DNA of 64,000 nucleotides from Patescibacteria group bacterium (GTDB lineage: Bacteria; Patescibacteriota; CPR2; UBA1875; CAIMLA01), in NCBI GenBank assembly GCA_041738615.1, contig JBGSPL010000001.1, forward strand, positions 158,564 through 222,563. The letters are read 5' to 3'. The position numbers and the translations under genes are program-made. Under the pieces are notes generated by a model. The model saw only the letters and a list, made by a program, of their open reading frames with translations, was not told the DNA's origin and did no database searches. Within the stretch, counting starts at the first letter, position 1; every line of letters begins with the position of its first letter. Positions 10,318 to 44,788 of this stretch are shown piece by piece.

Positions 10318-10392
10318 TGGGGAGTCGCCAAGTGGTAAGGCACCGGTTTTTGGTACCGGCATTCGGGGGTTCGAGTCCCTCCTCCCCAGCCA
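10318..10392 (+). tRNA. tRNA-Gln (anticodon UUG)
   Basis: Cloverleaf read by eye: acceptor TGGGGAG/CTCCCCA, D-arm GCC-AAGTGGTAA-GGC, anticodon stem CCGGT/ACCGG with loop TTTTGGT, T-loop GGTTCGAGTCC, encoded CCA. Confidence 0.85.
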
Positions 10393-25347: not shown

Positions 25348-27679
<2,332 letters not shown>

Positions 27680-28759: not shown

Positions 28760-28789
28760 CTTGTCGACCCAATAAAAAATCTTCGATTT
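28760..28789 (-). terminator. Intrinsic terminator CTTCGA-GAAA-TCGAAG plus T-run upstream of rplJ, insulating rplJL from the island
   Basis: Minus-strand hairpin followed by ATTTTTTATTGG. Confidence 0.55.
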
Positions 28790-28998
28790 CTCGAAGACAC
28801 ATTGGAATAAAATTCATAAAGCTTATGCGTTTTACTCCCTCGGTAGCGGATTAAGCCCTGTGGGCAGCTACTGTCTCCGGAAATTACCTTTGTATTTTAG
28901 CAAATTATCAGGAGAAGGTCAAGTTCAATATCTAAAGGCGTTAGTGCCGGCGCCCTGTGTGGTTGCCGGCACTAACAGTACCCCTTGCGCCGTTGGCG

Positions 28999-29376
28999 CT
29001 ACTTCGGACGAAGCTGAATCTCATGGTTCAGAGTGTCCTTCATGGACTGAGGGACCGCGTCATACCATGCGCTGGTCGCCGAGATGTACGGTCCTCGAAG
29101 CTCAGTGGGGAGCAACTCGCTGGTCCAGAGACCGAGGTAGAGCTTGTTGCCGCCGGTGACGATAAGAGACTCGCGGCTCGGACGACCTGGATGATTGCTG
29201 GCGGCCTTCAGAGCTTGCCATTGGCGCAGCGCACTGCGCACGTTCGCGCGATAGACCGCATCCAAGACATTGGAATCGTGGGCGAGTATGGACTCCCCCA
29301 GCTGTTCGAGAATTTCTCCGGCCTCCAGAAGCCTTGTGGTGTCCGCCTCGACTTGCTCTTTGCTCCTTGTGTCCAT
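28999..29376 (-). CDS. Hypothetical protein (125 aa), high GC
   Basis: MDTRSKEQVEADTTRLLEAGEILEQL...; SD AGGAGAG before ATG 29376; longer overlapping ORFs on both strands judged artefacts of GC richness. Confidence 0.4.
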   Translation of the reverse strand: MDTRSKEQVEADTTRLLEAGEILEQLGESILAHDSNVLDAVYRANVRSALRQWQALKAASNHPGRPSRESLIVTGGNKLYLGLWTSELLPTELRGPYISATSAWYDAVPQSMKDTLNHEIQLRPK

Positions 29377-29509
29377 GACGACTCTCCTGTTCGTCGGGTG
29401 TTGGGCATAGTGGTACTGCGTCTTGCGACGCCTAAATATAACATTATTGCCATATGTGGTCAAGAAGACCGGGGCGTGAGCAAAACGCCACCTAGGACCT
29501 CGTGTGGGG

Positions 29510-29833
29510 TTACAGACCCTTTGCAGCCTGTATTTCTCGGCGCATCTGCTCGAGATCTGGTTCACTTCCCTTACAGAAGAATGCGCGACAAACCTGAGGT
29601 CGGCGAGAGTGGATACTGCACTTGCCCCCAGTGAGATATATGCAGCTCCCATCCGTATTCTGCGCGACTATATTGGCACCACACTCAGAGGCCGTAGGAA
29701 AATTATCAAATATATCGGCTTTTGGGAACATAGCTAAGTATTTGCCTGACCGATACTCCTTCTCATTCAGATTGATAAGAAATAGCCGGCAGCAAATTCC
29801 GCACGCGTCACAACTGTCTTCGGTATGTTTCAT
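29510..29833 (-). CDS. YkgJ-family Cys-cluster protein (CxxCxxCC putative Zn/Fe-chelating domain)
   Basis: 107 aa; CDACGICC...C...C..C pattern characteristic of PF03692-type proteins. Confidence 0.65.
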   Translation of the reverse strand: MKHTEDSCDACGICCRLFLINLNEKEYRSGKYLAMFPKADIFDNFPTASECGANIVAQNTDGSCIYLTGGKCSIHSRRPQVCRAFFCKGSEPDLEQMRREIQAAKGL

Positions 29834-29895
29834 GTATACATTCTAGCAGCAATCTCATAAACCTTGAATCAGTAGTTCAAAAGTGCTATATTACA

Positions 29896-30390
29896 TTGTC
29901 ACTATACTGTGGCGACGAACTCAAGGACGGGGGTGAGCATGTGGCTCATGAAGAATTGGTACGGAGTATCACAGAGGCGATGCAGGAATTCGAACGGCAC
30001 AACGTGCTTGGCGACAAGCTAAAGGCCCAGGCAAGAGCGGAGTACGTTACCGCCGATGATTCACTGCGGCATCGAGCCGATGATATGGCAAAACTGTATT
30101 GCCATATCATGTCACAAAGCCTAGCTACTGACGAGATCAGGCAATCAAGTGCCTACATCATCATTGTGTGCAGAAACCAGGAGCACGTTGATGTTGATCT
30201 CTGTCAGGCCATCCTAGTGCTCGCGGATGCCTCCGGGGAGGTCCTGAGCGACCTCGATCGAGCGGCACGGAAGACCGATTTCCCTAGTCTGCGTGCCATC
30301 TTCTGTACGCTTCAGGTGGAAGAGTCCAAAGCCGACTACTACGCCATGGCCATCATGAAACTCTATCGCAGCACAGGTTGCTGCAACTAG
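29896..30390 (+). CDS. Hypothetical protein (about 150-164 aa; TTG or GTG start)
   Basis: High-GC ORF, protein-like composition; no motif recognised. Confidence 0.4.
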   Translation: MSLYCGDELKDGGEHVAHEELVRSITEAMQEFERHNVLGDKLKAQARAEYVTADDSLRHRADDMAKLYCHIMSQSLATDEIRQSSAYIIIVCRNQEHVDVDLCQAILVLADASGEVLSDLDRAARKTDFPSLRAIFCTLQVEESKADYYAMAIMKLYRSTGCCN

Positions 30391-30527
30391 CGCTCAAAGC
30401 GCGCGCTCCGTACTATCCGTACGACGGCGCTGCACTTTGGGCGCCTTTCGTATATATTCAAAAGAAGACGCCCCCGTTGCAAGGAAACAACGAGGTTGTC
30501 TTCTTTGCCGCGGGGGCGGTAGTCTGG

Positions 30528-30968
30528 CTACTCCGTGGTCGGACAGCTCTCACAAGGCTGTGGACTCGTGACACTGAGCATCCCTGGAATGGGAGCTTTG
30601 TGGAGCACCCAACAAGCTAGAGTGAGGTGGAAGCATGGGTTCAGGTGTGAACAGAGCCCGTTTCCGTCATCGAAGTGACCAAGATCGAGCAGGCGCGTAA
30701 TAAGCTCAGAACGCCTGGTGATACTCAGAACCGGGATGAGCTCCCTTACCTTGGTCGTCACATACAACACGTGGTCAACCTGTGCAACAACTCTGGCATA
30801 GCGCCACTTGTCGAGGAGGGGGTCAAGGAGATCCCACCAAGGGTAACTGTCCTGTCGGACATACAGAAGTTCCAGCTCCTCGCGAAGCCTCGAAAGGTGC
30901 TTTTCGGCACCCGCCAAGAAGGCGTGAAGCTGTTCCTCAACGACTTCGCTTTCGTGCTCCTCAAGCAT
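30528..30968 (-). CDS. Hypothetical acidic helical protein (146 aa)
   Basis: MLEEHESEVVEEQLHAFLAGAEKHLSRLREELELLYV...; preferred over the overlapping plus-strand ORF 30675..31166. Confidence 0.35.
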   Translation of the reverse strand: MLEEHESEVVEEQLHAFLAGAEKHLSRLREELELLYVRQDSYPWWDLLDPLLDKWRYARVVAQVDHVLYVTTKVRELIPVLSITRRSELITRLLDLGHFDDGNGLCSHLNPCFHLTLACWVLHKAPIPGMLSVTSPQPCESCPTTE

Positions 30969-31045
30969 TGTTGCCCCTCTCCGAAGTATCGCAACAGTAG
31001 CTTACGACCGAGATTATACAACAGGGACTTAGTATTGTCTAGGGT

Positions 31046-32281
31046 CTATGAGTTACGTAGTACTCCATCTAGATTCCTAGCTTCCTCACTAGTCAGAAGT
31101 GACATTTCGTTATATCCGAGCAGACTGAGTCCCTCAATGTCACGGATACGAGATAAGGCCACATAACCCAGACCGTAGGTAAAAGACCTAGAAAGATCAA
31201 TTTCGGCATAGTCCAGGGTCATTCCTTGGCTTTTGTGGATTGTTATGGCCCAGGCCAAACGCAATGGTATTTGTTCTATCCAATCATCGGCGCCAATCTC
31301 ATCGGTCCCCCATCGCATTGGCGCGGCGAGCACAGTGTCTCCCCGGAATGTTTCTACTATCGGATATCCGGTATCTACATCAAAATCGGTTATGGTTCCC
31401 GTAGTTCCGTTCACGTAATTTTTGGTGGGATTGTTGAAAACAAACATTACAACAGCTCCTATTTTTAGCCTCAATACCTCTGGGGCTAGGCAACCCTTTC
31501 GCATCTGGGTGACGATATAACTGTCGCCACTATCTTTCATCTTAAATACATATTCCCTTTCAGTCAGAGCGCTTAACCGGTTTTCATTATAAGTGTCCAC
31601 ATTAACATTGTGTGTATATAGCTTAGTTGGGATTATAGTCTCGTCGAAAGGATACCTCAGCCTACTAGTAAGCAGTTCTACAGTATCTTCACTTACGCGA
31701 GACTCGCGTATCTCGTTGAGAACTTGGTGCAAAGAATTGTTTTCGGTTTGCCGATACTGTTTGTCCAAGTAGCAAACACTGAGGTCCATCTGCTGCCAGG
31801 CCGCGGAGAGATTCACAAAATTGCCCCGATTCTTTACCCTAGATACGGGAGGTAGCTGAAAAAAGTCACCGCAGAGAATCACTTGGAGTCCACCGAACGG
31901 TCCAAGCTCTGTACGGACTCTTCGACAAATCTCGTCTACAAGGTCTAGTTGATAATCGTGAAGCATAGAGACTTCGTCGATAATAAGGACGTCTGCTTCC
32001 TGAACTCGTTTTACCGCAGCCTTGTTCTTCGTAAACATCTTCTTGATTTCGCTTGGGGTCATGCGGTCCTTGATACCCATACCGCTCCATGAGTGAATGG
32101 TAACGCCACCCAGATGCGTTGCCGCGATACCGGTAGATGCCGTGATCCCCACCTTGATCTTGTTTTTGTTCAAATACGCTATGAATTGATTTAATAAATA
32201 GGTCTTGCCTGTGCCGGCCTGGCCTGTAATAAGAGCGTTTTTACCGCTTACTAGTATCTCGAAGGCTTCTTCTTGTGTCAT
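31046..32281 (-). CDS. PIF1/RecD-family SF1B DNA helicase
   Basis: 411 aa; Walker A GQAGTGKTYLL, Walker B LIIDEVSML, GDFFQLPPV, C-terminal ITIHKSQGMT; AAA_30 + UvrD_C_2-like arrangement. Confidence 0.85.
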   Translation of the reverse strand: MTQEEAFEILVSGKNALITGQAGTGKTYLLNQFIAYLNKNKIKVGITASTGIAATHLGGVTIHSWSGMGIKDRMTPSEIKKMFTKNKAAVKRVQEADVLIIDEVSMLHDYQLDLVDEICRRVRTELGPFGGLQVILCGDFFQLPPVSRVKNRGNFVNLSAAWQQMDLSVCYLDKQYRQTENNSLHQVLNEIRESRVSEDTVELLTSRLRYPFDETIIPTKLYTHNVNVDTYNENRLSALTEREYVFKMKDSGDSYIVTQMRKGCLAPEVLRLKIGAVVMFVFNNPTKNYVNGTTGTITDFDVDTGYPIVETFRGDTVLAAPMRWGTDEIGADDWIEQIPLRLAWAITIHKSQGMTLDYAEIDLSRSFTYGLGYVALSRIRDIEGLSLLGYNEMSLLTSEEARNLDGVLRNS

Positions 32282-32470
32282 TACATTATTATCCCTAGTT
32301 TCGGTTGCTAAAACTAGTAGACAGTCCCTCTTTGCAGGTAAATGTCATAATGCGCTATTCAAAACTCCGATTTAGTCGTATAATGCTCATGTTTTGCAGC
32401 TTTACAGACAGATAGTAGTTTACGTAGATTTCGGCGGCGATAATTGCCGAAAACAGGGAAGGAGCACTCC

Positions 32471-32644
32471 ATGTGCGGAGAAATACCGGCGGGATTTGGC
32501 CCGGGAGGAATTGGCTGGCTCGGGGATTGTCAGCCTGTCCAAGCTCCCAGTACAGCTGTACAGGGCGATACCACCAAGGCTAGTCTGGAGGTATCGGAGG
32601 CTTCGGCCCAAGACCCTGCCTCTAGCAGCGATACGCCGAGCTGA
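32471..32644 (+). CDS. Small acidic protein (57 aa) with strong SD
   Basis: GGAAGGAG-6 nt-ATG; MCGEIPAGFGPGGIGWLGDCQPV...; high GC; terminated by the hairpin at 32755-32795. Confidence 0.4.
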   Translation: MCGEIPAGFGPGGIGWLGDCQPVQAPSTAVQGDTTKASLEVSEASAQDPASSSDTPS

Positions 32645-32754
32645 CCCCCTCGATGCCCCCCACTCCCTATTTACTACTTTCTATCTACCGTCACTCAAGT
32701 GACAACCTGCACAGACTTGGCCGGATTCCACTCGTGGGACCCGGCCTAGTGCAT

Positions 32755-32795
32755 TAAAAAGGAGCGACCAAGCGGTCGCTCCTTGAGTATTTCTT
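32755..32795. terminator. Bidirectional terminator AAGGAGCGACC-AAGC-GGTCGCTCCTT
   Basis: Perfect 11-bp stem between convergent genes. Confidence 0.65.
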
Positions 32796-32798
32796 AGT

Positions 32799-33416
32799 CT
32801 ACAGTTTTACGTAAATCGTTTTGTTGCTCCAAAAGCTTGGTTTAAATACTAGCTTAAGGCCTGTGTCTCCCGCTGGGACCTCAAAAACCATTGTCCCTGT
32901 CACCTTACCGCCCGGTGCAAGGTTTCCAGAATTCAGCTTGTTCTCAGCGTCAACAAATGTCTCCGTTTTCAAGACGCCGCTACTGTCCTGAACCTGAAAA
33001 TCGAAGGTATTGAAACTCACCTGGTCTGTGCCGTTATTCTCAATACTTACCTCGACAAGAACATATTCTTTCCCTGACTCTGGAACCATATATTCATTGC
33101 CGGTGCTATAGTTTCGTGTTGCTTTAGTGACTCTTAGAATCTGCTTGTCTATACTCGCAGCTTCACCAACGATGTAATCTGATTTTGCAGCGGCAATCTT
33201 GGACTCAGTACTACTCTTACCCGTCGTGGTGGTAGTCGTTTTGCCGCCACCGGTGGCAGAGATAACTGCTCCAAGCAAAATGATACCCAGGATGACCGAG
33301 ATAACCTTATGTTGTACAAACCAATTTCTTAAATCTGCACCACAGTGCTTACATTTTACAGCGCCTTTTGCGATGTCCTCTTTACACTTTGGGCACTTTA
33401 CTACTTCTTCAGCCAT
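32799..33416 (-). CDS. Zinc-ribbon / single-TM / DUF4352-type beta-sandwich membrane protein
   Basis: 205 aa; CPKCK...CKHCG N-terminal zinc ribbon, TM helix, Thr-rich linker, C-terminal domain ...EYVLVEVSIENNGT...GTMVFEVP typical of DUF4352. Confidence 0.65.
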   Translation of the reverse strand: MAEEVVKCPKCKEDIAKGAVKCKHCGADLRNWFVQHKVISVILGIILLGAVISATGGGKTTTTTTGKSSTESKIAAAKSDYIVGEAASIDKQILRVTKATRNYSTGNEYMVPESGKEYVLVEVSIENNGTDQVSFNTFDFQVQDSSGVLKTETFVDAENKLNSGNLAPGGKVTGTMVFEVPAGDTGLKLVFKPSFWSNKTIYVKL

Positions 33417-33490
33417 GTATTCCCCTTTCGTGGTTAATATCTAGCCTGATTTTAGCCCTGCACTAGCATAAATGTCAAATATTAGCCCAG

Positions 33491-34072
33491 TTATTTAGCG
33501 CCGTACACTACGAACCCTTGGTGCCTAAGATCCTCGGCGAGTTTCTTCTCTGCTGTCTGGGCCTCTTCTTTGGTCTTAATAGCACTAGGTACCCAAAGAT
33601 CTGTTCGCAAGATGGGATTCTCGGCTTTGCGGACTTTTACAGATGAATTGTAACCTGAGATATGTTGTGCAAGCCGTATTTCTGGGTCGTATATAGACTG
33701 TCCCACGTAAACCTTTTTGGGATTATTATCGAGCTCGATGACGTACAGCTGCCAGAAACCCTTTTGAAGGTGTGAGCCAGCTATTACTTGATAGTTCTTT
33801 TCTGTAAGTATCTCTACTTGGTCCAAAACGAGCTTCTTTGCTTCGTCTTCTGTGTTTATTGGCTTGATTTTAGCTGATTTTTCAACCAGCATTGCAGGCT
33901 TCTTGCCATGACGAACACTGCGCACAAACTTTTCAAAACACTTTTGGATGTGATCTTGGCTATACTGAATAAATAGCTTTCTGGAGCCCTTATTGATCTC
34001 GAAAATATATATCTGATAAGGAATGATCGCCGAATCGGGGCTGATATCTAGATTGGGAGTAACTTCTTTCAT
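33491..34072 (-). CDS. GIY-YIG nuclease-domain protein with uncharacterised N-terminal domain
   Basis: 193 aa; ...WQLYVIELDNNPKKVYVGQSIYDPEIRLAQHISG... fits GIY-(10-11)-YIG-...-R-...-H; AT-rich host-like composition. Confidence 0.6.
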   Translation of the reverse strand: MKEVTPNLDISPDSAIIPYQIYIFEINKGSRKLFIQYSQDHIQKCFEKFVRSVRHGKKPAMLVEKSAKIKPINTEDEAKKLVLDQVEILTEKNYQVIAGSHLQKGFWQLYVIELDNNPKKVYVGQSIYDPEIRLAQHISGYNSSVKVRKAENPILRTDLWVPSAIKTKEEAQTAEKKLAEDLRHQGFVVYGAK

Positions 34073-34200
34073 GAGTGTATTATAACGTACTTTTGTGCTT
34101 AATAATAGGTAAACCTACAGTTACGAAAGGCGCCCAGTAGTGCAGCGCCAATCTTGCGGATAGGCGTGCGCTCTGGGCGCTTGGTGACCAACTAGCCGTG

Positions 34201-34671
34201 TTACGAAACCGGTTCGGTGGCGTATTGCCGGGTTGGCTTTGGCTCTTCGTAGAGAGGGTTCTCGATGCGGCCGCCGACGACGGCCTGCTTGTAGGTGTCC
34301 TGGTCGACGATGATGGTGAAGTCGAGCTTGTCCCAGTATGTGGGCTCGTCGTCGCCTGGGTCGGCTAGTACAGCGTAGCGCGCACGGACAAGTAGCTCGA
34401 AACAGGTCGGTTCCCCGAGCTCCCACGGGTAGGATGAGAGTAGAGATAGGTCATTTCCAAGTGGGCCGTTCGTGAACGAAAGCGCTGGCGCGAGCTTCTC
34501 GACGACCGTGACGTACCGGTGGCTCTTCTTGATTGCCACCTTCTCGTTTCTATTGTCGATCGCGATGGCGCAGATGAACAAGACGATAATAATGACCACC
34601 AGTGCGACGATGAGGGCCAGGAAGCCCCCAGTAATCGCAAGTGCCCATTGCCACCAAGCCCAATACGGCAT
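34201..34671 (-). CDS. Hypothetical N-terminally membrane-anchored protein (156 aa), high GC
   Basis: SD GGGGAGGGG before ATG; TM LALIVALVVIIIVLFICAIAI then soluble domain. Confidence 0.5.
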   Translation of the reverse strand: MPYWAWWQWALAITGGFLALIVALVVIIIVLFICAIAIDNRNEKVAIKKSHRYVTVVEKLAPALSFTNGPLGNDLSLLSSYPWELGEPTCFELLVRARYAVLADPGDDEPTYWDKLDFTIIVDQDTYKQAVVGGRIENPLYEEPKPTRQYATEPVS

Positions 34672-34740
34672 GACCCCTCCCCTGACGAAGTGACCTTACG
34701 CCTTAGTATAGGCAAAGATTACAAATAGTCAAGAGTATAT

Positions 34741-34790
34741 ACGAAAAGAGTCCGCGCCGGAGGCGCATAGCGCAGACTCCTTCGCGGACC
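34741..34790 (-). repeat. Copy 1 of ~50-bp palindromic terminator-like repeat
   Basis: ACGAAAAGAGTCCGCGCCGGAGGCGCATAGCGCAGACTCCTTCGCGGAC; minus strand forms a long imperfect hairpin followed by TCTTTTCGT; sits just 3' of gene 34797..35804. Confidence 0.7.
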
Positions 34791-34796
34791 GTAGTG

Positions 34797-35804
34797 TTAG
34801 GACCCGATACTTGACGTGTCTTCGTCATCCTTAGACAGCTCGATACCCTCTTCTTCCTCGTAGTGAATGTCGATCGGTCCTGGCATGTATGAAGCAATCA
34901 CCTGGCAGATAGCGACATCGAGGCCGTCGTCCTGCCAATCCTTGCCTGGACTACGAACAACAACGATACCGCCGAGGATTTCACCGACGAGAACGAGTCC
35001 GGGAATCTGACCTATCTCGAGCCGTATCTCTGGTAGAGCCAAGCTAGAAGCTGCGGGTCGACCCAAATCGTCGAAATCTCCACCGAATGGATATGGGTGA
35101 TAAGGAGGCAACCCGTAGACAGTGTAACGGTGGACGTTCTCGGCTAGCGCGTCGATGTAGATGAAAAGCAATGGGTTGTCTCCGTTGCGCTTCTCTCGAA
35201 CGAGGCTGTCGATTTCGCCAACCAGTACTTTGACCTTCTCTGAGACATCAGCGGAACCGATGAACCCAACGGCTTTGTCGGCTGGGTCTGACGTCTCGAG
35301 GTCTTCCCACAATTCCTCAGAAGTGAGACCTGAGAGCTCGCGACGAAACTCGTCGACAATGTCATGTGTCGCGAGCTCTTGTTTGCGCTGACGCGCGATT
35401 TCTTCAGTCACAGCTTCGTCAAGACCGACGAGGATAGAGGTGATGAACGCCTCTAGCTCGATAAGCTCATCGGTAGCCACCCGGCTCTTTGCCAACATTC
35501 GTTTGTAGGTGAATTGAGCTTGCCGCGCTTCCTCGGTAAGATCAGAGTGATTCTTCTTGTACTCCTGGGCAATGCCCTGGATCCACCTCGACCGGCGCAT
35601 CTTGAGAAAGATCTCACCGGTATCGTCGGTGAGTTCCTCGGCCGGTAGGATGAGCATCCTCTCGAGCAACACCATCACTGACGAAAGGTTCGGCAGTAGT
35701 CTCTCGGGCTCTTCGTAGCCTACGACCTCAAAGTCATGAGCGACGGCGGCGAGGCAGTCGATCACGTCTCGCACCCATGCTGTGCTGGTGTCATGGAACG
35801 ACAT
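34797..35804 (-). CDS. Hypothetical acidic protein (335 aa), high GC
   Basis: SD GGAGGGAG-6-ATG; no recognisable catalytic motif; flanked on both sides by the palindromic repeat. Confidence 0.55.
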   Translation of the reverse strand: MSFHDTSTAWVRDVIDCLAAVAHDFEVVGYEEPERLLPNLSSVMVLLERMLILPAEELTDDTGEIFLKMRRSRWIQGIAQEYKKNHSDLTEEARQAQFTYKRMLAKSRVATDELIELEAFITSILVGLDEAVTEEIARQRKQELATHDIVDEFRRELSGLTSEELWEDLETSDPADKAVGFIGSADVSEKVKVLVGEIDSLVREKRNGDNPLLFIYIDALAENVHRYTVYGLPPYHPYPFGGDFDDLGRPAASSLALPEIRLEIGQIPGLVLVGEILGGIVVVRSPGKDWQDDGLDVAICQVIASYMPGPIDIHYEEEEGIELSKDDEDTSSIGS

Positions 35805-35890
35805 GACCGGCTCCCTCCGTCGGTTTTCAAGGTATCGTTGTCCTTGCGGGTATTATACATAAGGCCACTAGATATACAAGCCCCATAAAC

Positions 35891-35940
35891 GAAGGGAGTC
35901 CGCGCCGGAGGCGCATGGCGCAGACTCCTTCGCGGACTCG
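35891..35940 (-). repeat. Copy 2 of the palindromic repeat (about 3 mismatches to copy 1)
   Basis: ACGAAGGGAGTCCGCGCCGGAGGCGCATGGCGCAGACTCCTTCGCGGACTC just 3' of gene 35971..36288. Confidence 0.7.
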
Positions 35941-35970
35941 TGTTGCCGTACACACGGCTGAAGGGGATGT

Positions 35971-36288
35971 CTACAGACAGAATCTCTCCGGAACCTTGAA
36001 GCGGAAGGGAGAGAATTCCCTCTTCGGTGCAGGACGATAGTAGCCTATACAAGGGCTTTCGTCCTCTGCTTCAATCAGAACGTAGAGCTCCTGCCCGTGT
36101 AGCTGCTTCTTGAGAAACTCCAGAACTGGGCCTATCTTGCCTCGATTACCCTTGGGTTTGTAGTAGAGGCAGAAGTAGAGAATCCCTTGGTACCGCCTCA
36201 GTACTACCTTGCCGTTCACCCACTGGCGAACGATTTCTGTCACCTCTTCGGGTGTCAAGGGACGGTTGTTCGTCTTCCTTCTTCCCAT
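35971..36288 (-). CDS. Hypothetical basic protein (105 aa)
   Basis: SD GAGAGGGGAAAC-ATG; MGRRKTNNRPLTPEEVTEIVRQW... Confidence 0.45.
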   Translation of the reverse strand: MGRRKTNNRPLTPEEVTEIVRQWVNGKVVLRRYQGILYFCLYYKPKGNRGKIGPVLEFLKKQLHGQELYVLIEAEDESPCIGYYRPAPKREFSPFRFKVPERFCL

Positions 36289-36423
36289 GTTTCCCCTCTC
36301 GGCGTTCGGAACTATACAACAAGCGTACTAGTTTGCACCTCCATTTGTCGTAGGTGACGCTTGTGGATTCTGTAAGGTACTCTCATCGGTATACCCAGAT
36401 GTCGGGAAACGGGCAGCTGACCC

Positions 36424-36750
36424 CTAGGAAACCAGGGCGGCGGCGATGAAGGCGAGCAGCTCGCTCGGCTTGGACGAGTGAACGTGGACTTCCTGAAGGC
36501 CACTCGGCCGACGGTCGATGACCTTCACCCCGACGACAGGGGCTTCCTTGCCCGGTGTGCAGGCGTGCAGCTCAGTGGCCCTGCGGTAGGGCCTTGCGGG
36601 ACGCATCGGCTTCTCGGTAGGCTTAGCGCTCTTGTGCGTAATGCGGGCGGTTGGGTCAGGACAGTCCTCATGAGCGAGGATTGCCTGGACGTCACCGAGA
36701 AGCGGAAAGGCCTTCTGGCTGTGCTTTTCGCGCTGAGATCGAGTTGACAT
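36424..36750 (-). CDS. Hypothetical protein (108 aa), high GC
   Basis: SD GGGGAGAAC before ATG 36750; first gene after the island's right-end promoter. Confidence 0.45.
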   Translation of the reverse strand: MSTRSQREKHSQKAFPLLGDVQAILAHEDCPDPTARITHKSAKPTEKPMRPARPYRRATELHACTPGKEAPVVGVKVIDRRPSGLQEVHVHSSKPSELLAFIAAALVS

Positions 36751-36845
36751 TCGTTCTCCCCTGTCGATGCCTACAAGACTGGTACTTAACCTATACTCCC
36801 TTCGGCATGATGCAACCGCATCCTTGGATCCCTTAGAATGCTAAG

Positions 36846-36875
36846 ATTATATCCCCTAGATAGGGCAAAACGCAA
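36846..36875 (-). promoter_or_regulatory. Candidate promoter TTGCGT-18-TATAAT with a palindrome (CCCTA-GA-TAGGG) in the spacer
   Basis: Minus-strand -35/-10 read directly; positioned ~90 nt upstream of gene 36750 and reading leftward into the island. Confidence 0.35.
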
Positions 36876-36880
36876 GGTGT

Positions 36881-37885
36881 CTAGATATCCCAGGCAAAAC
36901 CATTCCCAAAGTGGCCTTGCGAGGCAGTTTGCCGATACACTGGGTCCCTGAGTCCCAGACTTGATATTATCCCATCCGGTGAAAGGTCGTACTCACCGTC
37001 TATGAGAAGATTAATTTCTTTGTGTCCGTCAATTATGGCAATGGCCATTACTGGCTGGACGACACCAATGCTGTAAGCGAGTTTCACCAGCACCTCATTA
37101 CAGTTCAACTTTCTAAGATAATCAACTGCGATGCGCCGTGCCATATAGGCAGCACTACGGTCGACCTTGGTAGCATCTTTGCCGCTATAGCAACCGCCGC
37201 CAATTGGTATTTGAGGTCCATAATTATCGACAGCTAATTTCCGACCGGTAAGACCGGTATCAGCCGTAAAACCTCCGATAGAAAAGTCCCCGGTCGGATT
37301 TATATGAATATGTATTGGCTTTAAAGTTTCTGCCAACTCGCGAAGCGGAGCAAAATCCTCACCGGGTTGGTGTTGCGCACTTATGACGACGGTATCGACA
37401 CTACCATCCTCGGCCAAGGTAACCTGACTTTTGGCGTCAGGGCCAAAACCTACCGGCAAAGCGTGGATTAGCTTACGCGAAAGGTAAAGTCCTTGGGGTA
37501 TCATCGCTTCATTCTCGTTACAAGCATAACCAACCATAATCCCCTGATCTCCTGCCCCACCAACATCAACACCCTGTGCGATCTCTGGACTTTGATGAAC
37601 GACATTCGTAAATACCTGTAGAGTGTCGTTGTAACCAATTACTGTATAAATATTTTGTACAATTGAGGTCAAATCAAAGTGTGCCTTCGAAGTCACTTCG
37701 CCGGTTATATATATCTGCCCATGTCCTCCCATAACCTCTACTGCCACTCTGCTCCCGGGGTCCTGCCGCAGATATTCATCCAAGATAGCATCTGATATCT
37801 GGTCACATACTTTGTCTGGATGTCCAGCGCTCACACATTCTGCAGTTCGCATTCCCTTGTTTTTAAAATAGTCATTTTCGCTCAT
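36881..37885 (-). CDS. metK: S-adenosylmethionine synthetase (short form)
   Basis: GHPDKVCDQISDAILD, GAGDQGIMVGYA, DAKSQVT, GGGCYSGKDATKVDRSAAY; SD AAGGAGA-6-ATG at 37885. Confidence 0.9.
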   Translation of the reverse strand: MSENDYFKNKGMRTAECVSAGHPDKVCDQISDAILDEYLRQDPGSRVAVEVMGGHGQIYITGEVTSKAHFDLTSIVQNIYTVIGYNDTLQVFTNVVHQSPEIAQGVDVGGAGDQGIMVGYACNENEAMIPQGLYLSRKLIHALPVGFGPDAKSQVTLAEDGSVDTVVISAQHQPGEDFAPLRELAETLKPIHIHINPTGDFSIGGFTADTGLTGRKLAVDNYGPQIPIGGGCYSGKDATKVDRSAAYMARRIAVDYLRKLNCNEVLVKLAYSIGVVQPVMAIAIIDGHKEINLLIDGEYDLSPDGIISSLGLRDPVYRQTASQGHFGNGFAWDI

Positions 37886-37907
37886 TATGCTCTCCTTTTG
37901 TTTTAGC

Positions 37908-37936
37908 AATCAAAAATCTCTTTCCACCGAAAGAGA
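37908..37936 (-). terminator. Expression-platform intrinsic terminator of the metK riboswitch
   Basis: Minus strand TCTCTTTC-GGTG-GAAAGAGA followed by TTTTT, 25 nt before the metK SD. Confidence 0.65.
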
Positions 37937-37960
37937 CAAGTTCGACCTTTTCATATAGGA

Positions 37961-38095
37961 CTTATCGCTCCACTTTCGTGGCTAGCATTGGCACCCTACA
38001 GCTCTAGGGTTGCCGGCAGGTACCACCATCGCAAAAGATTGCTCTTTCGGTCAGGCATCGGGCTAGTTCCCTATCTGCGCTCTTGATATATTTGA
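37961..38095 (-). promoter_or_regulatory. SAM-I (S-box) riboswitch aptamer candidate upstream of metK
   Basis: Minus strand ...TATCAAGAGCGCAGATAGGGAACTAGCCCGATGCC...GGCAACC...GGGTGCCAATGCTAGCC...GAGCGATAAG matches the SAM-I core (AUCAAGAG, AGGGA, GCCCGAUG, GGCAACC, GGUGCCAAU, P1 closing GAUAAG) with an enlarged P3 insert. Confidence 0.6.
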
Positions 38096-38134
38096 TTGTG
38101 ATCTAAGTATACTAAGGTTTGAGCCTGGAATCAA

Positions 38135-38170
38135 ATAATCCCCACTAAGTTAGTGGGGATTATTTTGGTT
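38135..38170. terminator. Hairpin AATCCCCACT-AAGTT-AGTGGGGATT with flanking T-runs, 3' of the DEAD-box helicase gene
   Basis: 10-bp perfect stem. Confidence 0.6.
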
Positions 38171-39396
38171 TACTCTACAAAAGTTAGGGCTTTGCCGAGA
38201 CTATGCCCTCGGCCAGTACGACCGATGCGGTGGACGTAATCATCATATGTCTTAGGGGTGGTGTAGTTGATTACATGAGAAACGTCCTTGATGTCCAGAC
38301 CACGAGCGGCAACGTCGGTTGCAACCAGGATCTTAATTCGTTCGTCCTTGAAGTCACGAAGTGCTTTCTGTCGCTGTCCTTGGCGTTTATCACCGTGGAT
38401 TGATTCTGCCTTGAAGCCATTCTCAATAAGCTCAACTGCTAGTCTCTCAACGTCACGCTTGGTTTCAGAGAAGATGATAACCTTCTCCATTTCGGGCTGA
38501 GCGAGAATCTCATGTAGTTTAGCTTTTTTGTCAAAACGAGTCGTCTTGATCACTTCCTGATGGACATTGACCGCAGTCTCGCCGCTACTGACCTTTACGG
38601 TAATAGGATTCTTAGCGAAACTCTCTGTGAGTCGCGCGATCTTCTCGGGCATAGTTGCCGAGAAAAAGAGACTCTGTCGCTCAACTGGTAGCTGAGAAAG
38701 GAAATATCGAATTTCATCGACAAAACCCATGTCTAACATGCGGTCTACTTCGTCTAATACGACATTGTTGAAGCTCGAGAACGTGATAAAACCACGGTTT
38801 GCAAGATCCTTTAGACGTCCTGGCGTACCGATAACAAAGTCCTGGCGCATACGCAGGGACGCTATCTGCTTACCAATTGGTAAGCCGCCGACACAAGAGG
38901 TATAAAATATCTTCATTCCCCAAGAGAATTTGCGCAGCTCATCCTCGATCTGGAGAGCGAGTTCACGTGTAGGTGCAATCACCAGCACTTTTTGTGAACG
39001 ATCCTGATAAACTTTGTTGATTAGAGGCAGCAAAAATGCAGCTGTCTTACCTGTACCAGTATTTGCAAGACCGATAAGGTCGCGACCTGCAATGATTGCT
39101 TCGATCGACTGGTCCTGGATAGGAGTCGGTACTCTATAGCCCTGTTTTACAAGATTGGCCTGCAAATGCTCGATGAAGGAAAAATCGGTAAATTTACTAG
39201 TTACTTCTACGACTGGTACTGGATTCGCGAGCGCTTTCTTGGCATTACGTTCGATAAAAGCGTGAATATCAATCTTGCTTTCACCTTTATTGCGGCCGTT
39301 CTTAGACGGACCGAAAGTTCTGTTTGATCCGCGCGAACGGAAATTGCTAGGGCTCTTCTTGATAAAAGACCCCTTAGAGGAGTTGATTTTTTGCAT
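38170..39396 (-). CDS. DEAD-box ATP-dependent RNA helicase
   Basis: 408 aa; Q-motif, Walker A ANTGTGKT, PTRELA, DEVD, SAT, HRIGRTGR; basic RS-rich N-terminal tail. Confidence 0.9.
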   Translation of the reverse strand: MQKINSSKGSFIKKSPSNFRSRGSNRTFGPSKNGRNKGESKIDIHAFIERNAKKALANPVPVVEVTSKFTDFSFIEHLQANLVKQGYRVPTPIQDQSIEAIIAGRDLIGLANTGTGKTAAFLLPLINKVYQDRSQKVLVIAPTRELALQIEDELRKFSWGMKIFYTSCVGGLPIGKQIASLRMRQDFVIGTPGRLKDLANRGFITFSSFNNVVLDEVDRMLDMGFVDEIRYFLSQLPVERQSLFFSATMPEKIARLTESFAKNPITVKVSSGETAVNVHQEVIKTTRFDKKAKLHEILAQPEMEKVIIFSETKRDVERLAVELIENGFKAESIHGDKRQGQRQKALRDFKDERIKILVATDVAARGLDIKDVSHVINYTTPKTYDDYVHRIGRTGRGHSLGKALTFVE

Positions 39397-40547: not shown

Positions 40548-41768
40548 CTATTTTATCCCTGGTACGGGCTTATCAACGACTAATTTTGCCACTTCGGCTC
40601 TCACTTCTTCGTAAATCGTCTCATTTTCCACGTTTCGGAGCGTTTTTACGATTAGCCCCGCCACTTTGGCCGCATCCTCCTCCTTGAAACCTCGTGTTGT
40701 AACTGCAGCTGTACCTACTCGGATGCCAGATGTTACGAATGGACTCTCTGGATCGTTTGGAATTGCGTTCTTGTTTACCGTAATATGAACCCTGTCGAGC
40801 TCCTTTTCCGCTACCTTACCTGTAACGCTAAGACTACGCAAGTCTAGGAGTAGAAGGTGGTTGTCAGAGCCGCCAGAAACCATATTCACGCCCTCTGCTT
40901 CAAAAACGCGTTGCATGGCCTGTACGTTGGCCACAACCTGCTTTGCATACTGTGTAAACTCAGGCTTTAGGGCCTCGCCGAAGCAAATGGCCTTGGCAGC
41001 GATAATGTGCTCCAGGGGACCACCTTGCATCCCAGGGAAAACGGCCTTATCTACGGCCTTCGCATATTTTTCTTTACAAAGAATTACTCCACCACGCGGA
41101 CCGCGTAGGGTTTTGTGAGTTGTGGTAGTAACGATATCGGCATAAGGTACTGGGGAAGGGTGAATACCTGTAGCCACTAGTCCGGCAATATGGGCCATAT
41201 CCACCATTAGCATTGCCCCTACCTTGTCGGCAATCTCACGAAATCGCTTGAAGTCTATCTCACGTGGATAGGCACTGGCACCGGCCACAATGAGCTTGGG
41301 CTTGTGTTCTAGCGCAAGCTTCTCAATGTTATCATAATCAAGATAACCCTCTGCCGTCAGACCATAGGCTACAAAGTTATAAAACTTACCCGAGAAGTTT
41401 ACCGGACAACCGTGAGTCAGGTGACCTCCCTGATCAAGAGCCTGGCCCATTACGGTGTCCCCTAACTCGATGATTGCAAAGTAGGCAGCGATATTGGCGC
41501 TGGCACCACTATGTGGTTGGACATTGGCGTGTTCCGCTCCGAAGAGCTTCTTTACTCGATCTCTAGCCAGGTCCTCTACTCGATCGATATATTCACATCC
41601 CCCGTAGTAGCGGTGTGATGGTGTGCCCTCGGCGTACTTGTTGGTAAGAATTGATCCAGCTGCTGCTAATATCTCTTCTGAGACATAATTCTCGCTGGCA
41701 ATTAGCTCTATTCCGTTTTTTTGGCGACCTTTCTCGAGGTCTATGATGTCAAAAATCTCTGTATCCAT
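40548..41768 (-). CDS. glyA: Serine hydroxymethyltransferase
   Basis: [12 protein letters not shown]-Lys context [14 protein letters not shown]; start at [12 protein letters not shown] makes it abut the CYTH gene stop. Confidence 0.93.
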
Positions 41769-41769
41769 C

Positions 41770-42360
41770 TCATTCTCCTTGTTTATCGTACTGATAAACT
41801 TCATTACTTTCTGCGTTTAGGCGGTCTATGTAGTCGTGGAAGCCTTCCTCTGAAAACACCTTGAGCCCAAGCTCCTCAAGAACCGTCTCGATGTTCTTTT
41901 TTACCAAATCATGATCCGAATCATAGGGAGCGACAATCTCTGCCTCGAAGTAGTAACTGTGGCCAGGAACTTCGACAAGAGCCACTTCCACACCTTTGTA
42001 ATCGTAGGCGAAGGTGTGACGGTTACCCTTGATTGCCTTCACGAATCCCATTTCTCCAAAAATCTTTAACAGCCGTTCCGTGCTACCCCGCTCTGTCATT
42101 ACAGATATTTCTTCGCGGTGGTCGGAACCTTGCCAGGTGCCAAGCTTCAATATTACTTCTGGGTTACCATTAGTTTCGCGAATGCGGAAGTCCTTGGTTC
42201 GTCCTCTCAGTCCCTCTCCTTCTATGAAGGTCGAGAAGTCGTAGAATATTCTATTCTTTTCTTCTTTGAAGGTCCCCTTTTCGTCTAAGAATTCCTTGGT
42301 TTTGGCGTACTTCTGCCCGTCTATCTCCCCGCGTAGCTCAATCTCAAAATCAGCAATCAT
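41770..42360 (-). CDS. CYTH-domain protein (CyaB/triphosphate tunnel metalloenzyme family)
   Basis: 196 aa; N-terminal EIELRGEI (EXEXK-like) motif and alternating charged beta-strand pattern. Confidence 0.65.
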
Positions 42361-42401
42361 AGAGTACTCCTACTAATAAAAAATATTTGTGTTCCCAATA
42401 A

Positions 42402-43226
42402 TCATAGCTCACCTGCTTTCACAACGTTTGAAAGCAGCATCGAAACTGTCATCGGACCTACCCCTCCTGGGCTGGGGGTGACATATGCCGCTTTTTTCAT
42501 AACATTCTTGTAGTCCACGTCCCCAACAATCTTACCCTGGTAAAAGGAAGTGCCGATGTCGATAACGACAGCACCATCCTTTATCATGTCTGCCTTCACT
42601 AAGTTCCGTTTTCCAACGGCCGAGATGACGATATCTGATTCGGAAGTGATTGCCTTTAAGTTTTTGGTAAGGCTGTTTGCACTTAGAACCGTTGCTTCTT
42701 CGTTTAGGAGCATCTGCGCTAGCGGGCGACCTACAAGGTTACTCTGACCGATCACTGCAACCCTCTTACCGGCTATATCTATCTGATAATAACGAAGTAA
42801 ATTGATCACTCCCTCTGGAGTCGCCGGGTAGAGTCCAGGTAGCCCCTTGATCAGTCTGCCTAAATTTACCGAAGACAAACCATCCACGTCCTTGTTTGGG
42901 GCAATTGCCTCTAGGAGCTCGTTTGGAACGTAGTCTCCGGGAAGTGGTAGCTGTATCAAAATTCCAGTAGTCTTCTTGTCTCTGTTCAGCTTGGCAATGA
43001 GCTTCAAAACATCTGCCTGTTTGCCGGCTGAATCAAAACGCCAAAGGGTCATGGTGATTCCAACCCTCTCGCAAGCCTGCCTCTTGAGTTGGACGTACTT
43101 TTCACTGGCGGGGTCGTCCCCTATCAGAATTACAGCCAAGGAATACTTACGTTTCGATAACAAAGCAGCCTCTTTCACACCTTCTTCAATTGTCTTAGCT
43201 AGCTCACGGCCAGACATCTCTGTCAT
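42402..43226 (-). CDS. folD: Bifunctional methylene-THF dehydrogenase/methenyl-THF cyclohydrolase
   Basis: 274 aa; LAVILIGDDPASEKYV, ILIQLPLP, GRSNLVGRPLAQ. Confidence 0.9.
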   Translation of the reverse strand: MTEMSGRELAKTIEEGVKEAALLSKRKYSLAVILIGDDPASEKYVQLKRQACERVGITMTLWRFDSAGKQADVLKLIAKLNRDKKTTGILIQLPLPGDYVPNELLEAIAPNKDVDGLSSVNLGRLIKGLPGLYPATPEGVINLLRYYQIDIAGKRVAVIGQSNLVGRPLAQMLLNEEATVLSANSLTKNLKAITSESDIVISAVGKRNLVKADMIKDGAVVIDIGTSFYQGKIVGDVDYKNVMKKAAYVTPSPGGVGPMTVSMLLSNVVKAGEL

Positions 43227-43723
43227 TTTCTCTCCAATACTACATACTTGAGTTTATACCCACCAGATTGAGAGTCAACTGATTCTGTCTCTTGGAATTC
43301 CTCAGAATATTCTGGGAAGAAAGTGTCTGCATCGTCAATTTCAGCATCCACAACGGTAAGGTATAGTCTGTCGGCGTCCTTAATTGCCTGTGAGTAAACA
43401 TAGCCACCGCCTATGACGAATATTTCGCTATCGTCACTCAGGGCTGCAACTTCGTATGCTTCTTGTAGACTGTGAGTAACGGTGGCACCAGGGATTTCGA
43501 TATTTTCTGGCGTTAAAACAACATTGAGCCTGCCCGGGAGCAAGAAAGGTAATGACTGGTAGGTCTTGTATCCCATAATCACAGGGTGACCATGCGTAAT
43601 CTTCTTAAAATGAGCCAAATCTTCGGGTAGTTCAAACAGTAACTGGTTGTTGCGTCCGATTGCCCTATTACCAGCAGCTACAACTGCTATCATGCTAATT
43701 GTTGGTTTCTTTTCATTATTCAA
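43223..43723 (-). CDS. folA: Dihydrofolate reductase
   Basis: MIAVVAAGNRAIGRNNQLLFELPEDLAHFKKITHGHPVIMGYKTY; likely TTG start 8 nt after AAGGAG. Confidence 0.85.
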   Translation of the reverse strand: MNNEKKPTISMIAVVAAGNRAIGRNNQLLFELPEDLAHFKKITHGHPVIMGYKTYQSLPFLLPGRLNVVLTPENIEIPGATVTHSLQEAYEVAALSDDSEIFVIGGGYVYSQAIKDADRLYLTVVDAEIDDADTFFPEYSEEFQETESVDSQSGGYKLKYVVLERK

Positions 43724-43727
43724 GACA

Positions 43728-44783: not shown

Positions 44784-44788
44784 TCTAG

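Follow-up and report, generated by a model that had tools for sequence, protein, structure and literature searches.

GC-rich orphan genes interleaved with host-like genes between metK and rplJ: a locus that may belong to a long-lived variable zone in a Saccharibacteria subclade

Genomic islands are common in Patescibacteria (PMC12455944). The described kind that comes closest to the locus discussed here is the integrase-free hotspot or flexible island—a fixed interval between core genes whose content is variable, rich in hypothetical genes, and compositionally deviant, and whose borders carry neither an integrase nor a tRNA. The same features are found at positions 28870-36860 of the 64-kb window analyzed here, i.e., the whole stretch of contig JBGSPL010000001.1 from a Patescibacteria group bacterium. 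Imported genes are usually AT-richer than their host and ameliorate over time. Unlike in flexible islands, the deviant genes of this region are richer in GC at third codon positions (GC3) than the host and stay so past the saturation of synonymous sites, and core genes—metK–PIF1, gmk, and a DEAD-box helicase gene—are embedded in the zone. It is also unusual that one of its gene families is tied to a conserved hairpin. The locus is of a known kind, and what is new are several families of orphan genes. At a probability of roughly 55%, we consider the region not one recent foreign island but a piece, next to rplJ, of a variable zone that has long persisted in a subclade of Saccharibacteria.

An earlier note on this DNA had read the region as a high-GC island of several origins, conceivably acquired from a high-GC host, and as a candidate defense, toxin-immunity, or mobile module. 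What it observed was partly confirmed; as to its interpretation, an accretion hotspot found support, but neither a recent import from a host nor a defense module did. The region consists of eight orphan genes (i01, i03, i04, i06, i09, i10, i11, and i12), which have no match in Pfam, NCBIfam, PHROGs, or PADLOC and none of which are mutual paralogues by all-against-all BLASTP, and of four genes with Pfam domains. About a dozen open reading frames (ORFs) without recognizable function, as had been counted, are therefore eight ORFs without family match, as the other four carry domains. Read along the minus strand, the order is metK, i12, i11, i10, i09, GIY-YIG, DUF4352, i06, PIF1, i04, i03, CxxCxxCC, i01, L10 leader, and rplJ, with i03 and the 57-amino-acid (aa) i06 as the only island genes on the plus strand. 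Identities in the following list refer to L003, a Saccharibacteria metagenome-assembled genome (MAG) that represents a separate species (98% identity for RplJ, 98% for DEAD, and 89% for MetK).

i01, 28999-29376, minus strand: orphan, 125 aa, GC3 0.70; no Pfam, NCBIfam, PHROG, or PADLOC match
i02, 29510-29833, minus strand: CxxCxxCC protein (PF03692), putative Zn/Fe-chelating protein, 107 aa, GC3 0.48; Pfam E 7.5e-9; 61% identity
i03, 29941-30390, plus strand: orphan of 149 aa, with a TTG at 29896 as a second possible start, GC3 0.62; no family matches
i04, 30528-30968, minus strand: orphan of 146 aa with GC3 0.63; predicted helical hairpin at the N-terminus, and a Cys/His motif, FDDG.G.CSHLNPCFHLTLACWVLH, that is conserved
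i05, 31046-32281, minus strand: PIF1-family helicase of superfamily 1B, 411 aa, host composition; PF05970 with 131 bits (cut-off 25.9), E 5.5e-38; 87% identity
i06, 32471-32644, plus strand: small ORF, 57 aa, GC 0.60, divergent from PIF1; N-terminus, Shine-Dalgarno site, and ATG kept in L003
i07, 32799-33416, minus strand: Zn-ribbon/transmembrane/DUF4352 protein, 205 aa, host composition; PF11611 with E 2.7e-27, phrog_806 with E 1.8e-31
i08, 33491-34072, minus strand: GIY-YIG-domain protein, 193 aa, host composition; PF01541 with 30.3 bits (cut-off 22.6) over residues 107-183; 81% identity
i09, 34201-34671, minus strand: orphan, 156 aa, N-terminal transmembrane helix (hydropathy peak at residues 20-38), GC3 0.74, the highest of the region; absent from L003
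i10, 34797-35804, minus strand: acidic orphan, 335 aa, isoelectric point (pI) 4.4, GC3 0.62; absent from L003, relatives P0005 (on L133) and P0006 (on L134)
i11, 35971-36288, minus strand: basic orphan, 105 aa, GC3 0.64, pI 9.7; 83% identity, no family matches
i12, 36424-36750, minus strand: basic Pro/Arg-rich orphan, 108 aa, GC 63%, GC3 0.73, pI 9.7; 90% identity, no Pfam match

GC content was profiled over the whole window in 300-nt sliding windows and 1-kb bins. It amounts to 51.0% in the region, 45.8% in the remainder, and 46.5% in the whole window—the background is hence at a measured 46% rather than at the roughly 43% that had been stated. In the 300-nt windows, GC is 0.60 to 0.63 at 28.95-29.4 kb and at 36.3-36.75 kb, 0.54 to 0.57 at 30.0-30.9 kb, and 0.56 at 32.4-32.7 kb; it lies at 0.52 to 0.60 over 34.05-36.3 kb. 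At 31.0-32.3 and 32.8-34.0 kb, GC is back to 0.40 to 0.48, and outside the region no 1-kb bin exceeds 0.503. On the level of codons, GC3 was calculated for a non-overlapping set of 69 ORFs with 90 aa or more, 58 of them outside the region. These 58 have a mean GC3 of 0.482 (standard deviation 0.045, maximum 0.591), against which the seven orphan ORFs of at least 100 aa stand out with 0.62 to 0.74 (z = +3.1 to +5.8). All eight orphans taken together lie at 0.60 to 0.74, i.e., 12 to 26 points over the genome mean—about 15 to 26 for those of at least 100 aa. Only the orphans deviate in this way: the four domain-bearing genes show host-like values (PIF1 0.48, DUF4352 0.46, GIY-YIG 0.45, and CxxCxxCC 0.48), with z about 0 for PIF1, GIY-YIG, and DUF4352, and the two kinds of genes alternate every 0.3 to 1.2 kb. 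Such a mosaic, with GC-rich genes set among host-like ones, is a genuine feature and goes far beyond what chance would give. The abrupt change in composition that had been noticed by eye is borne out by sliding GC and GC3 z-scores, with the excess at third codon positions, and so is the host-like character of PIF1 and GIY-YIG (GC3 0.48 and 0.45) between GC-rich blocks.

On average, the orphans are shifted over host genes by about +4 points in GC1, +3 in GC2, and +19 in GC3. Cross-genome regressions of the Muto-Osawa and Lawrence-Ochman type relate GC1, GC2, and GC3 to the GC content of a genome. Since the joint shifts match these regressions, the orphans fit a gene pool of about 55 to 58% GC and not an actinobacterium of 65 to 72% GC. 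The highly expressed rplJ and rplL favor AT-ending codons (GC3 0.33–0.36).

Third-position substitutions dominate in the orphans, Ka/Ks—the ratio of non-synonymous to synonymous divergence—is low, and protein motifs are kept, which shows that the orphans code for proteins and are subject to purifying selection. In the comparison with L003, substitutions at codon positions 1/2/3 amount to 0.06/0.06/0.30 for i12 and 0.40/0.30/0.65 for i01—the order being pos3 > pos1 > pos2 in the latter—with a Ka/Ks of 0.10 in i12 and of 0.14 in i11. The orphans i01, i03, and i04 evolve fast, with 46 to 48%, 42 to 43%, and 49% identity to their L003 orthologues (42–49% overall vs 98% for RplJ). Even so, i01 keeps the C-terminal motif TSAWYDAVPQS.KD..NHE.QLR, the C-terminal motif of i04 is sharply conserved, and the N-terminus of i06 is conserved as MCGE..AGF..W.G.CQP.

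In most genes, synonymous divergence from L003 is at saturation. For i01, i03, and i04 combined, four-fold sites in conserved codons stand at 99% saturation. Nevertheless, such sites have a GC content (GC4) of 0.64 in the window and of 0.61 in L003, as compared with 0.43 and 0.44 for the interleaved host-like genes and 0.45 and 0.37 for flanking genes. Amelioration in the sense of Lawrence and Ochman—a decay of GC toward the host as synonymous divergence grows—is not observed between these two genomes. An import before the split of the species should have decayed, and thus the high GC3 would be either continually renewed or actively maintained. A recent import, on the other hand, is contradicted by L003 orthologues that are equally GC3-rich despite saturated synonymous sites. 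For i11 and i12, four-fold saturation is about 51%, whereas it is 73 to 78% for the neighboring metK and DEAD; either their synonymous sites are constrained or they were shared more recently. More generally, the stretch 35971-39396, from DEAD through i11, shows 48 to 78% saturation against L003 and intergenic DNA that can still be aligned, and the genes from PIF1 through i01, plus tgt and a gene of the major facilitator superfamily (MFS) type, show 90 to 105%. This uneven synonymous divergence may reflect more recent recombination between lineages, or codon constraint.

For a view across relatives, genomes were collected in a metK-anchored scan (one genome per species) and an rplJ-anchored scan of metagenome contigs, and were ordered by RplJ identity as a proxy for phylogeny. 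L003 has the same order, i.e., metK-i12-i11-GIY-YIG-i06-PIF1-i04-i03-CxxC-i01-rplJ, and its orthologous blocks are GC-rich at matching places; only i07 (no tblastn match in L003), i09, and i10 are missing. A PIF1 orthologue with 48% identity lies 37 nt after metK in about 25 other Saccharibacteria loci, without the nuclease. Because of this adjacency, metK–PIF1 is an ancestral pair in Saccharibacteria and not cargo. That the island was inserted as a unit is therefore not supported: besides the ancestral pair, the whole order is shared with L003, in which synonymous sites are saturated.

Farther relatives differ in content stepwise. L053 (RplJ 72%) has the order SHMT-146aa-DEAD-77aa-243aa-rplJ with neither metK nor PIF1, in L054 (RplJ 64%) SHMT directly adjoins rplJ, in L055 (RplJ 57%) an earlier gene of the SHMT cluster adjoins rplJ, and L133 has different content after SHMT. 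Between SHMT and rplJ, L054 has a gap of about 0.1 kb and L053 one of 2.9 kb, whereas the gap is about 9 kb long in L003 and 11.9 kb long in the window. ORFs that are GC3 outliers by more than 3 robust standard deviations lie exclusively inside the zone in L003, L053, L133, and the window, and there are no such ORFs in L054 and L055, which are without the zone. The interval upstream of the L10 leader is hence a synteny breakpoint, at which relatives carry different genes at the same place. The notion of an accretion hotspot gains from this—the gap grows from L054 and L055 over L053 and L003 to the window, and the GC3 outliers are confined to it. In a comparison of L055 9237-10522 with window 40548-45996, the dCMP-deaminase/DCD-ThyA-DHFR-FolD-SHMT cluster is missing from L055, where a 222-aa gene abuts rplJ; hence, in this clade even the thymidylate/folate block belongs to what varies upstream of rplJ. 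On the other side of the rplJL pair, the MFS-type transporter gene at 26501-27679 (minus strand, between rplL and tgt) has a slightly raised GC3 of 0.55. It is 66% identical in L003 and gone from L053, L054, and L055, where tgt directly follows rplL, and marks a second indel site beside the rplJL pair.

When 5.8e9 proteins were searched by seed words with i10, the i04 profile, and i09 as queries, nothing came up but the query itself or its L003 orthologue—i04 has two members in this set, and i09 only itself. For i10, the largest orphan, an exhaustive phmmer search against 1.84e9 cluster representatives found two remote relatives, P0005 and P0006. P0005 (32% identity, E 1e-32) is encoded in the Saccharibacteria-type MAG L133, whose SHMT is 90% identical to that of the window. 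Its gene lies just downstream of the DCD-ThyA-DHFR-FolD-SHMT cluster and has a GC3 of 0.63 among neighbors of 0.30 to 0.44, beside an ATP-grasp ligase gene of GC3 0.72 and a 99-aa ORF of GC3 0.65. P0006 (24% identity, GC3 0.67) sits on the 1.5-kb contig L134 beside an 85-aa ORF of GC3 0.71, and there is no low-GC context on this contig. The i10 family is thus old in the clade and restricted to it, occupies the same zone, and is GC3-rich in each locus with readable surroundings. On these grounds, a loss of i10 in L003 is more probable than a gain in the window. The GC3-rich (0.72) ligase of L133 (7454-8473) is a stand-alone protein similar to the ATP-grasp portion of cyanophycin synthetase and of GshAB. 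Next to it lies a low-GC Mur-ligase/FolC-like gene (8574-9857), and the two may be the halves of a split protein of the cyanophycin-synthetase type within the same zone.

There was no match for the i12 profile in JGI metagenome contigs and none for i01, i10, i11, and i12 in IMG/VR viral contigs, and blastn of the whole region against phage (50,697 records) and plasmid records returned only conserved PIF1 motifs. An exact-sequence lookup of RplL for sister strains gave no record. A high-GC host as donor is not borne out by these searches: the orphans searched (i01, i04, i09, i10, i11, and i12) have no actinobacterial, phage, or plasmid homologue, and their only relatives are on related Patescibacteria-type contigs.

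The genes of the region differ from an operon in their predicted signals. Promoter-like sites precede i01, i03, i04, i06, i07, and i09, with the hexamers TAGACA-17-TATAAT for i04, TTGACA-18-TAAAAT for i07, and TTGACT-16-TATACT for i09. Terminator-like sites follow i03, i04, i07, and i10, with a type A hairpin after i11 and a type B hairpin after i09; in total, 17 terminator-like sites were found vs 7.9 expected. As most genes have their own promoter-like site or hairpin terminator, the region is best described as a string of mostly separate, predicted one-gene transcription units. The predicted elements are as follows.

29463-29435, minus strand: promoter-like site of i01 (hexamers)
29864-29892, plus strand: promoter-like site of i03 (hexamers)
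30426-30452, plus strand: GC-rich hairpin of type B, predicted terminator of i03, GGCGCTGCACTTTGGGCGCC followed by TTTCGTA; conserved after i03 in L003
30495-30472, minus strand: hairpin, predicted terminator of i04, convergent with that of i03
32401-32430, plus strand: promoter-like site of i06 (hexamers)
32680-32756, minus strand: two conserved hairpins, 80% identity to L003 with compensatory changes
32759-32784: predicted host-type terminator of i07
34122-34148, minus strand: type B hairpin after i09, identical to the type B terminator of i03 in 25 of 27 nt
34736-34790, minus strand: type A hairpin after i10, one repeat arm, predicted terminator
35884-35938, minus strand: type A hairpin after i11, second repeat arm, predicted terminator; a single copy at the orthologous place in L003

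Both hairpin types look like Rho-independent terminators, with a GC-rich stem-loop and a T-rich tract. Type A consists of GTCCGYGAAGGRG, a variable inner stem, GGCGCGGAC, and YYTTTCGT; its stem has 15 pairs, of which 4 covary (RNAalifold), and it lies 6 to 35 nt downstream of the i10 and i11 stop codons. In the window, type A forms a 53-nt direct repeat of 92% identity that brackets i10 (34737-34789 and 35885-35937) and occurs nowhere else. It follows i10-family genes in three genomes and stands on both sides of the gene in two of them, the window and L134; in L133, it follows the i10 homologue, and in L003, where i10 is missing, it is found once, after i11. The 85-aa ORF 5' of the L134 homologue is unrelated to i11 or i12. 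A covariance model found no type A element beyond these six copies in 680 kb, and a dispersed family of the repetitive extragenic palindrome (REP) or miniature inverted-repeat transposable element (MITE) kind was rejected on this ground. Three matches of the hairpin pattern in viral contigs lie inside coding DNA of 62 to 68% GC and were rejected as chance. Type B, for its part, is common to i03—in the window and in L003—and to the window-specific i09.

Where the two species differ, the differences coincide with such elements. For i10 and i09, both genomes run from CCTTTCGTAA straight into the GIY-YIG promoter, and therefore this indel is bounded by terminator tails. The gene i07 is inserted between GIY-YIG and the hairpins that terminate GIY-YIG in L003, and has a host-type terminator of its own. 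Hence, both the i10+i09 and the i07 indels are bounded by terminator hairpins or their tails, which shows gain and loss by whole one-gene units with breakpoints at predicted terminators; the hairpins themselves would then be recombination substrates. The hairpins at 32680-32756 sit between convergent genes in the window, and directly after GIY-YIG, as its terminator region, in L003.

With regard to translation, the orphans carry strong GGAG-type Shine-Dalgarno sites at the correct distance. They had been likened to those of Actinobacteria or Firmicutes; their strength was confirmed, but they are not foreign, as rplJ and metK share the GGAGAGGG-type site with the orphans. In two host-like genes the arrangement is different: a TATAAT ends about 7 nt before the ATG of i08 (GIY-YIG) and a TAGAAT about 7 nt before that of i02 (CxxCxxCC), in both cases without a Shine-Dalgarno site, which suggests leaderless mRNAs, unlike those of the strong-site orphans.

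Head-to-tail single-gene units, one of which is bracketed by an imperfect-palindrome hairpin with conserved outer arms and a variable center, resemble integron cassette arrays. However, the type A arms GTCCGYG...CGCGGAC lack the attC R-box GTTRRRY, the units have promoter-like sites of their own, and the hairpin family is confined to the surroundings of i10 and i11 in the window. No IntI-type tyrosine recombinase is found among the island ORFs and the Logan-annotated flank genes about 10 kb on each side. An integron was rejected, since there is no GTTRRRY and the units carry promoter-like sites.

The borders of the zone are given by the following elements.

28765-28898, minus strand: L10 leader (Rfam RF00557, 64.2 bits, E 1.5e-8), lower border of the zone, 5' of rplJ
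28922-28894, minus strand: promoter-like site at the L10 leader, TTGACC-17-TAAAAT with TG
36881-37909, minus strand: metK (probable ATG at 37885), S-AdoMet_synt N/M/C domains in the Logan gene call, 89% identity to L003; its stop codon at 36881 is the upper border
37937-37916, minus strand: terminator-like hairpin after the SAM-I-like element, predicted terminator
37959-38092, minus strand: SAM-I-like riboswitch 5' of metK, outside the region (RF00162, 29.5 bits, below the gathering score of 44.4, E 0.0035)

As rplL, rplJ, metK, and nearly all other genes lie on the minus strand, the border assignment is reversed with respect to the earlier note: the region extends from the metK 3' end to the L10 leader of rplJ instead of from an rplJ terminator to the metK riboswitch, which lies beyond metK. 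Despite its sub-threshold score, the SAM-I-like element spans the whole RF00162 model, followed by the terminator-like hairpin, and may be a divergent S-box variant of Patescibacteria. Apart from this weak riboswitch and the L10 leader, Rfam gave nothing at E ≤0.1 over 26-40 kb. The claim that neither integrase, transposase, nor tRNA marks the borders held up: scans of the 12 island ORFs with Pfam and NCBIfam contain no domain of a site-specific recombinase or transposase, the flanks are rplJ and metK, and there is no tRNA within 18 kb of the region. The sole tRNA of the 64 kb, tRNA-Gln(TTG), lies at 10318-10392 on the plus strand, opposite to almost all surrounding genes. Direct repeats delimiting the whole region are absent, the only substantial one (53 nt) bracketing a single gene. 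In agreement with the earlier note, rplJL are set apart from rplKA and rpoBC, with no rplK, rplA, rpoB, or rpoC within about 10 kb in the gene calls.

Classical islands, integrative and conjugative elements (ICEs), and prophage remnants share with the region a compositional step and accessory genes. They differ from it in that the region lacks an integrase, a tRNA target, an element-wide repeat, and genes for conjugation or of phages, and alternates with native genes. Classical islands are typically present in a scattered fashion, and close relatives have an empty site; this is not seen either, as L003 keeps the order and only i07, i09, and i10 vary. A classical island or ICE was rejected with respect to recombinase, tRNA or repeat, and empty site. 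A prophage remnant was rejected as well: PHROGs matches are to unknown-function families only, phage blastn hits to PIF1 motifs only, and the four orphan queries of IMG/VR stayed empty.

The PIF1 protein belongs to its family by domain scores, including the 2B domain PF21530 with 25.6 bits (cut-off 23.9), and i08 is assigned to the GIY-YIG nuclease superfamily by its domain score. A superfamily 1 (SF1) PIF1 helicase and a GIY-YIG protein within 1.3 kb are reminiscent of helicase-nuclease defense systems (PADLOC Nhi, Gabija, Hachiman, and type IV RecD-like). Unlike in these, PIF1 matches only the generic SF1-helicase core over part of its length, GIY-YIG and all orphans give no PADLOC match, and PIF1 is syntenic with metK without the nuclease. 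A helicase-nuclease defense system was rejected, as no PADLOC system matches, and in PADLOC-DB v2 there is no full-length component match in a system arrangement of any known anti-phage system. PHROGs returned unknown-function families only, for DUF4352 and CxxCxxCC. The proposed defense, toxin-immunity, or mobile module thus finds nothing in PADLOC and PHROGs beyond the SF1 core of PIF1 and the DUF4352 family, and the genes do not form one functional system. Structure prediction adds little. An AF2 model of i10 from a single sequence is unusable (pLDDT 38), a three-member profile of its family matches no PDB sequence, and the profile members have no Pfam match. For i04, a model from two sequences (pLDDT 63) predicts a helical hairpin, for which Foldseek found no PDB match with E <0.7. 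Most likely, the orphans would be individually acting accessory proteins of an epibiont—small, cytoplasmic, and acidic or basic, with one membrane-anchored—and possibly they are involved in host or phage interaction.

In the reading favored here, a zone would have opened between the thymidylate/folate cluster, which ends in SHMT, and the rplJ L10 leader in one Saccharibacteria subclade. The zone is a patchwork of host-composition housekeeping genes (gmk, the DEAD-box helicase gene, and the ancestral riboswitch–metK–PIF1 block), host-like accessory genes (CxxCxxCC, GIY-YIG, and DUF4352), and the eight orphan single-gene units, most of them with promoter-like hexamers, a GGAG site, or a hairpin ending in TTTCGT. 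Genes would enter and continue to turn over by integrase-independent recombination, with a gene pool of about 55 to 58% GC common to related Saccharibacteria as the source and short homologies at hairpin terminators as crossover points for gain and loss. Natural competence of Saccharibacteria is documented (PMC11665869). A more far-reaching version—orphan cassettes from a circulating pool of related Saccharibacteria, possibly also of hosts or phages, that are exchanged at hairpin terminators by integrase-independent transformation, stay foreign indefinitely, and encode fast-evolving host-interaction or anti-defense proteins—strikes us as speculative and rather unlikely. Several points speak against a long-lived variable zone fed by exchange. 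Import before the species split followed by passive evolution predicts drift to host GC3, and persistence requires continued exchange or a gene-specific force. No donor was identified, and it is composition that argues for a foreign origin of the orphans. The promoter-like hexamers are barely enriched (13 found vs 9.2 expected); the hairpins may merely be conserved terminators, which their six copies tie to recombination only circumstantially. Finally, the direction—gain here or loss in L053, L054, and L055—follows from parsimony and the RplJ-identity proxy, two to four genomes of the clade entered the comparison, and genomes of Patescibacteria also shrink.

Among the alternatives, native, vertically inherited, fast-evolving genes, whose high GC3 is kept by a gene-specific force such as GC-biased gene conversion or selection on mRNA or DNA structure, deserve the most attention, even if we regard them as a possible rather than a probable explanation. 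They would account for orthologues of equal GC3 despite complete four-fold saturation, for an i10 family that is GC3-rich at 24 to 32% protein identity, for host-type Shine-Dalgarno sites and promoters, for amino-acid-determining positions near the host (GC1 about +4 and GC2 about +3 points), and for the lack of a donor in any library searched; the Ks of i11 and i12 below that of their neighbors is as expected under synonymous constraint. However, PIF1, GIY-YIG, DUF4352, and CxxC have host GC3 at a distance of only 75 to 190 nt, so that the force must act gene by gene, and translational selection would push in the opposite direction, as rplJ and rplL prefer AT-ending codons. The joint shifts of GC1, GC2, and GC3 also match the regression for a genome of about 57% GC. 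A recent multi-origin island from a high-GC actinobacterial host or its phages that forms a defense, toxin-immunity, or mobile module, a reading along the lines of the earlier note, appears quite improbable. Saccharibacteria are epibionts of Actinobacteria and naturally competent (PMC11665869), and abrupt GC3 shifts, a helicase and a nuclease domain, and the lack of i07, i09, and i10 in the sister species are what such an island would bring along. Yet the same order and GC-rich blocks recur in a species with saturated Ks, PIF1 is ancestral beside metK, and the composition is at about 57% and not at 65 to 72% GC. It would also leave unexplained that there is no integrase, tRNA, or element-wide direct repeat, no PADLOC system, no phage, plasmid, or viral similarity, and no homologue of i04, i09, and i10 outside related Patescibacteria-type contigs.

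Two further explanations would remove the orphans as genes or as part of this genome. That the GC-rich blocks are non-coding—structured RNA or decayed remnants with ORFs by chance—could be argued from long ORFs on both strands of these blocks and from the lack of known domains in them. It is very improbable given codon positions with GC1 > GC2 < GC3, substitutions with pos3 > pos1 ≥ pos2 in the called frames, Ka/Ks of 0.10 to 0.14, kept motifs, correctly spaced Shine-Dalgarno sites, i10 protein homologues at 24 to 32% identity, and no Rfam match of an orphan block at E <0.1. An assembly or binning chimera that joins GC-rich fragments of another organism is the least credible of all. The contig is metagenomic, and the Logan assembly of run SRR28170474 does break inside the region: one of its two contigs extends from the folate cluster over metK up to i04, the second from i03 over rplJ and onward, and they abut at 30422-30446, exactly at the convergent i03/i04 terminators. 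But they overlap there by about 25 nt at the convergent-terminator hairpin, both outer borders (28.8 and 36.9 kb) are internal to a single Logan contig each, the interleaving recurs in an independent MAG that belongs to another species, and host-type translation signals occur throughout. Misassembly at the borders, which would have undone the earlier observation, is hence contradicted by their continuity and by the recurrence of the architecture. The junction at 30422-30446 may be a graph branch or strain variant; the core of this convergent-terminator site recurs after i09.

The genomes of Saccharibacteria and other Patescibacteria are tiny, and these bacteria rely on hosts; the genes behind this lifestyle are largely uncharacterized and should be specific to individual lineages. 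A small, delimited set of candidates for such genes is found at this locus—eight orphans under purifying selection at a position that is recognizable in relatives. It also calls for caution, as a compositional step together with a helicase and a nuclease is not enough to call a defense island. The GC3 of the orphans has stayed 15 to 25 points above the genome beyond synonymous saturation, which simple import and amelioration does not predict and which poses a modest but real evolutionary puzzle. In a reduced genome that is naturally transformable, this pattern would lend itself to a test of continued exchange versus GC-biased conversion.

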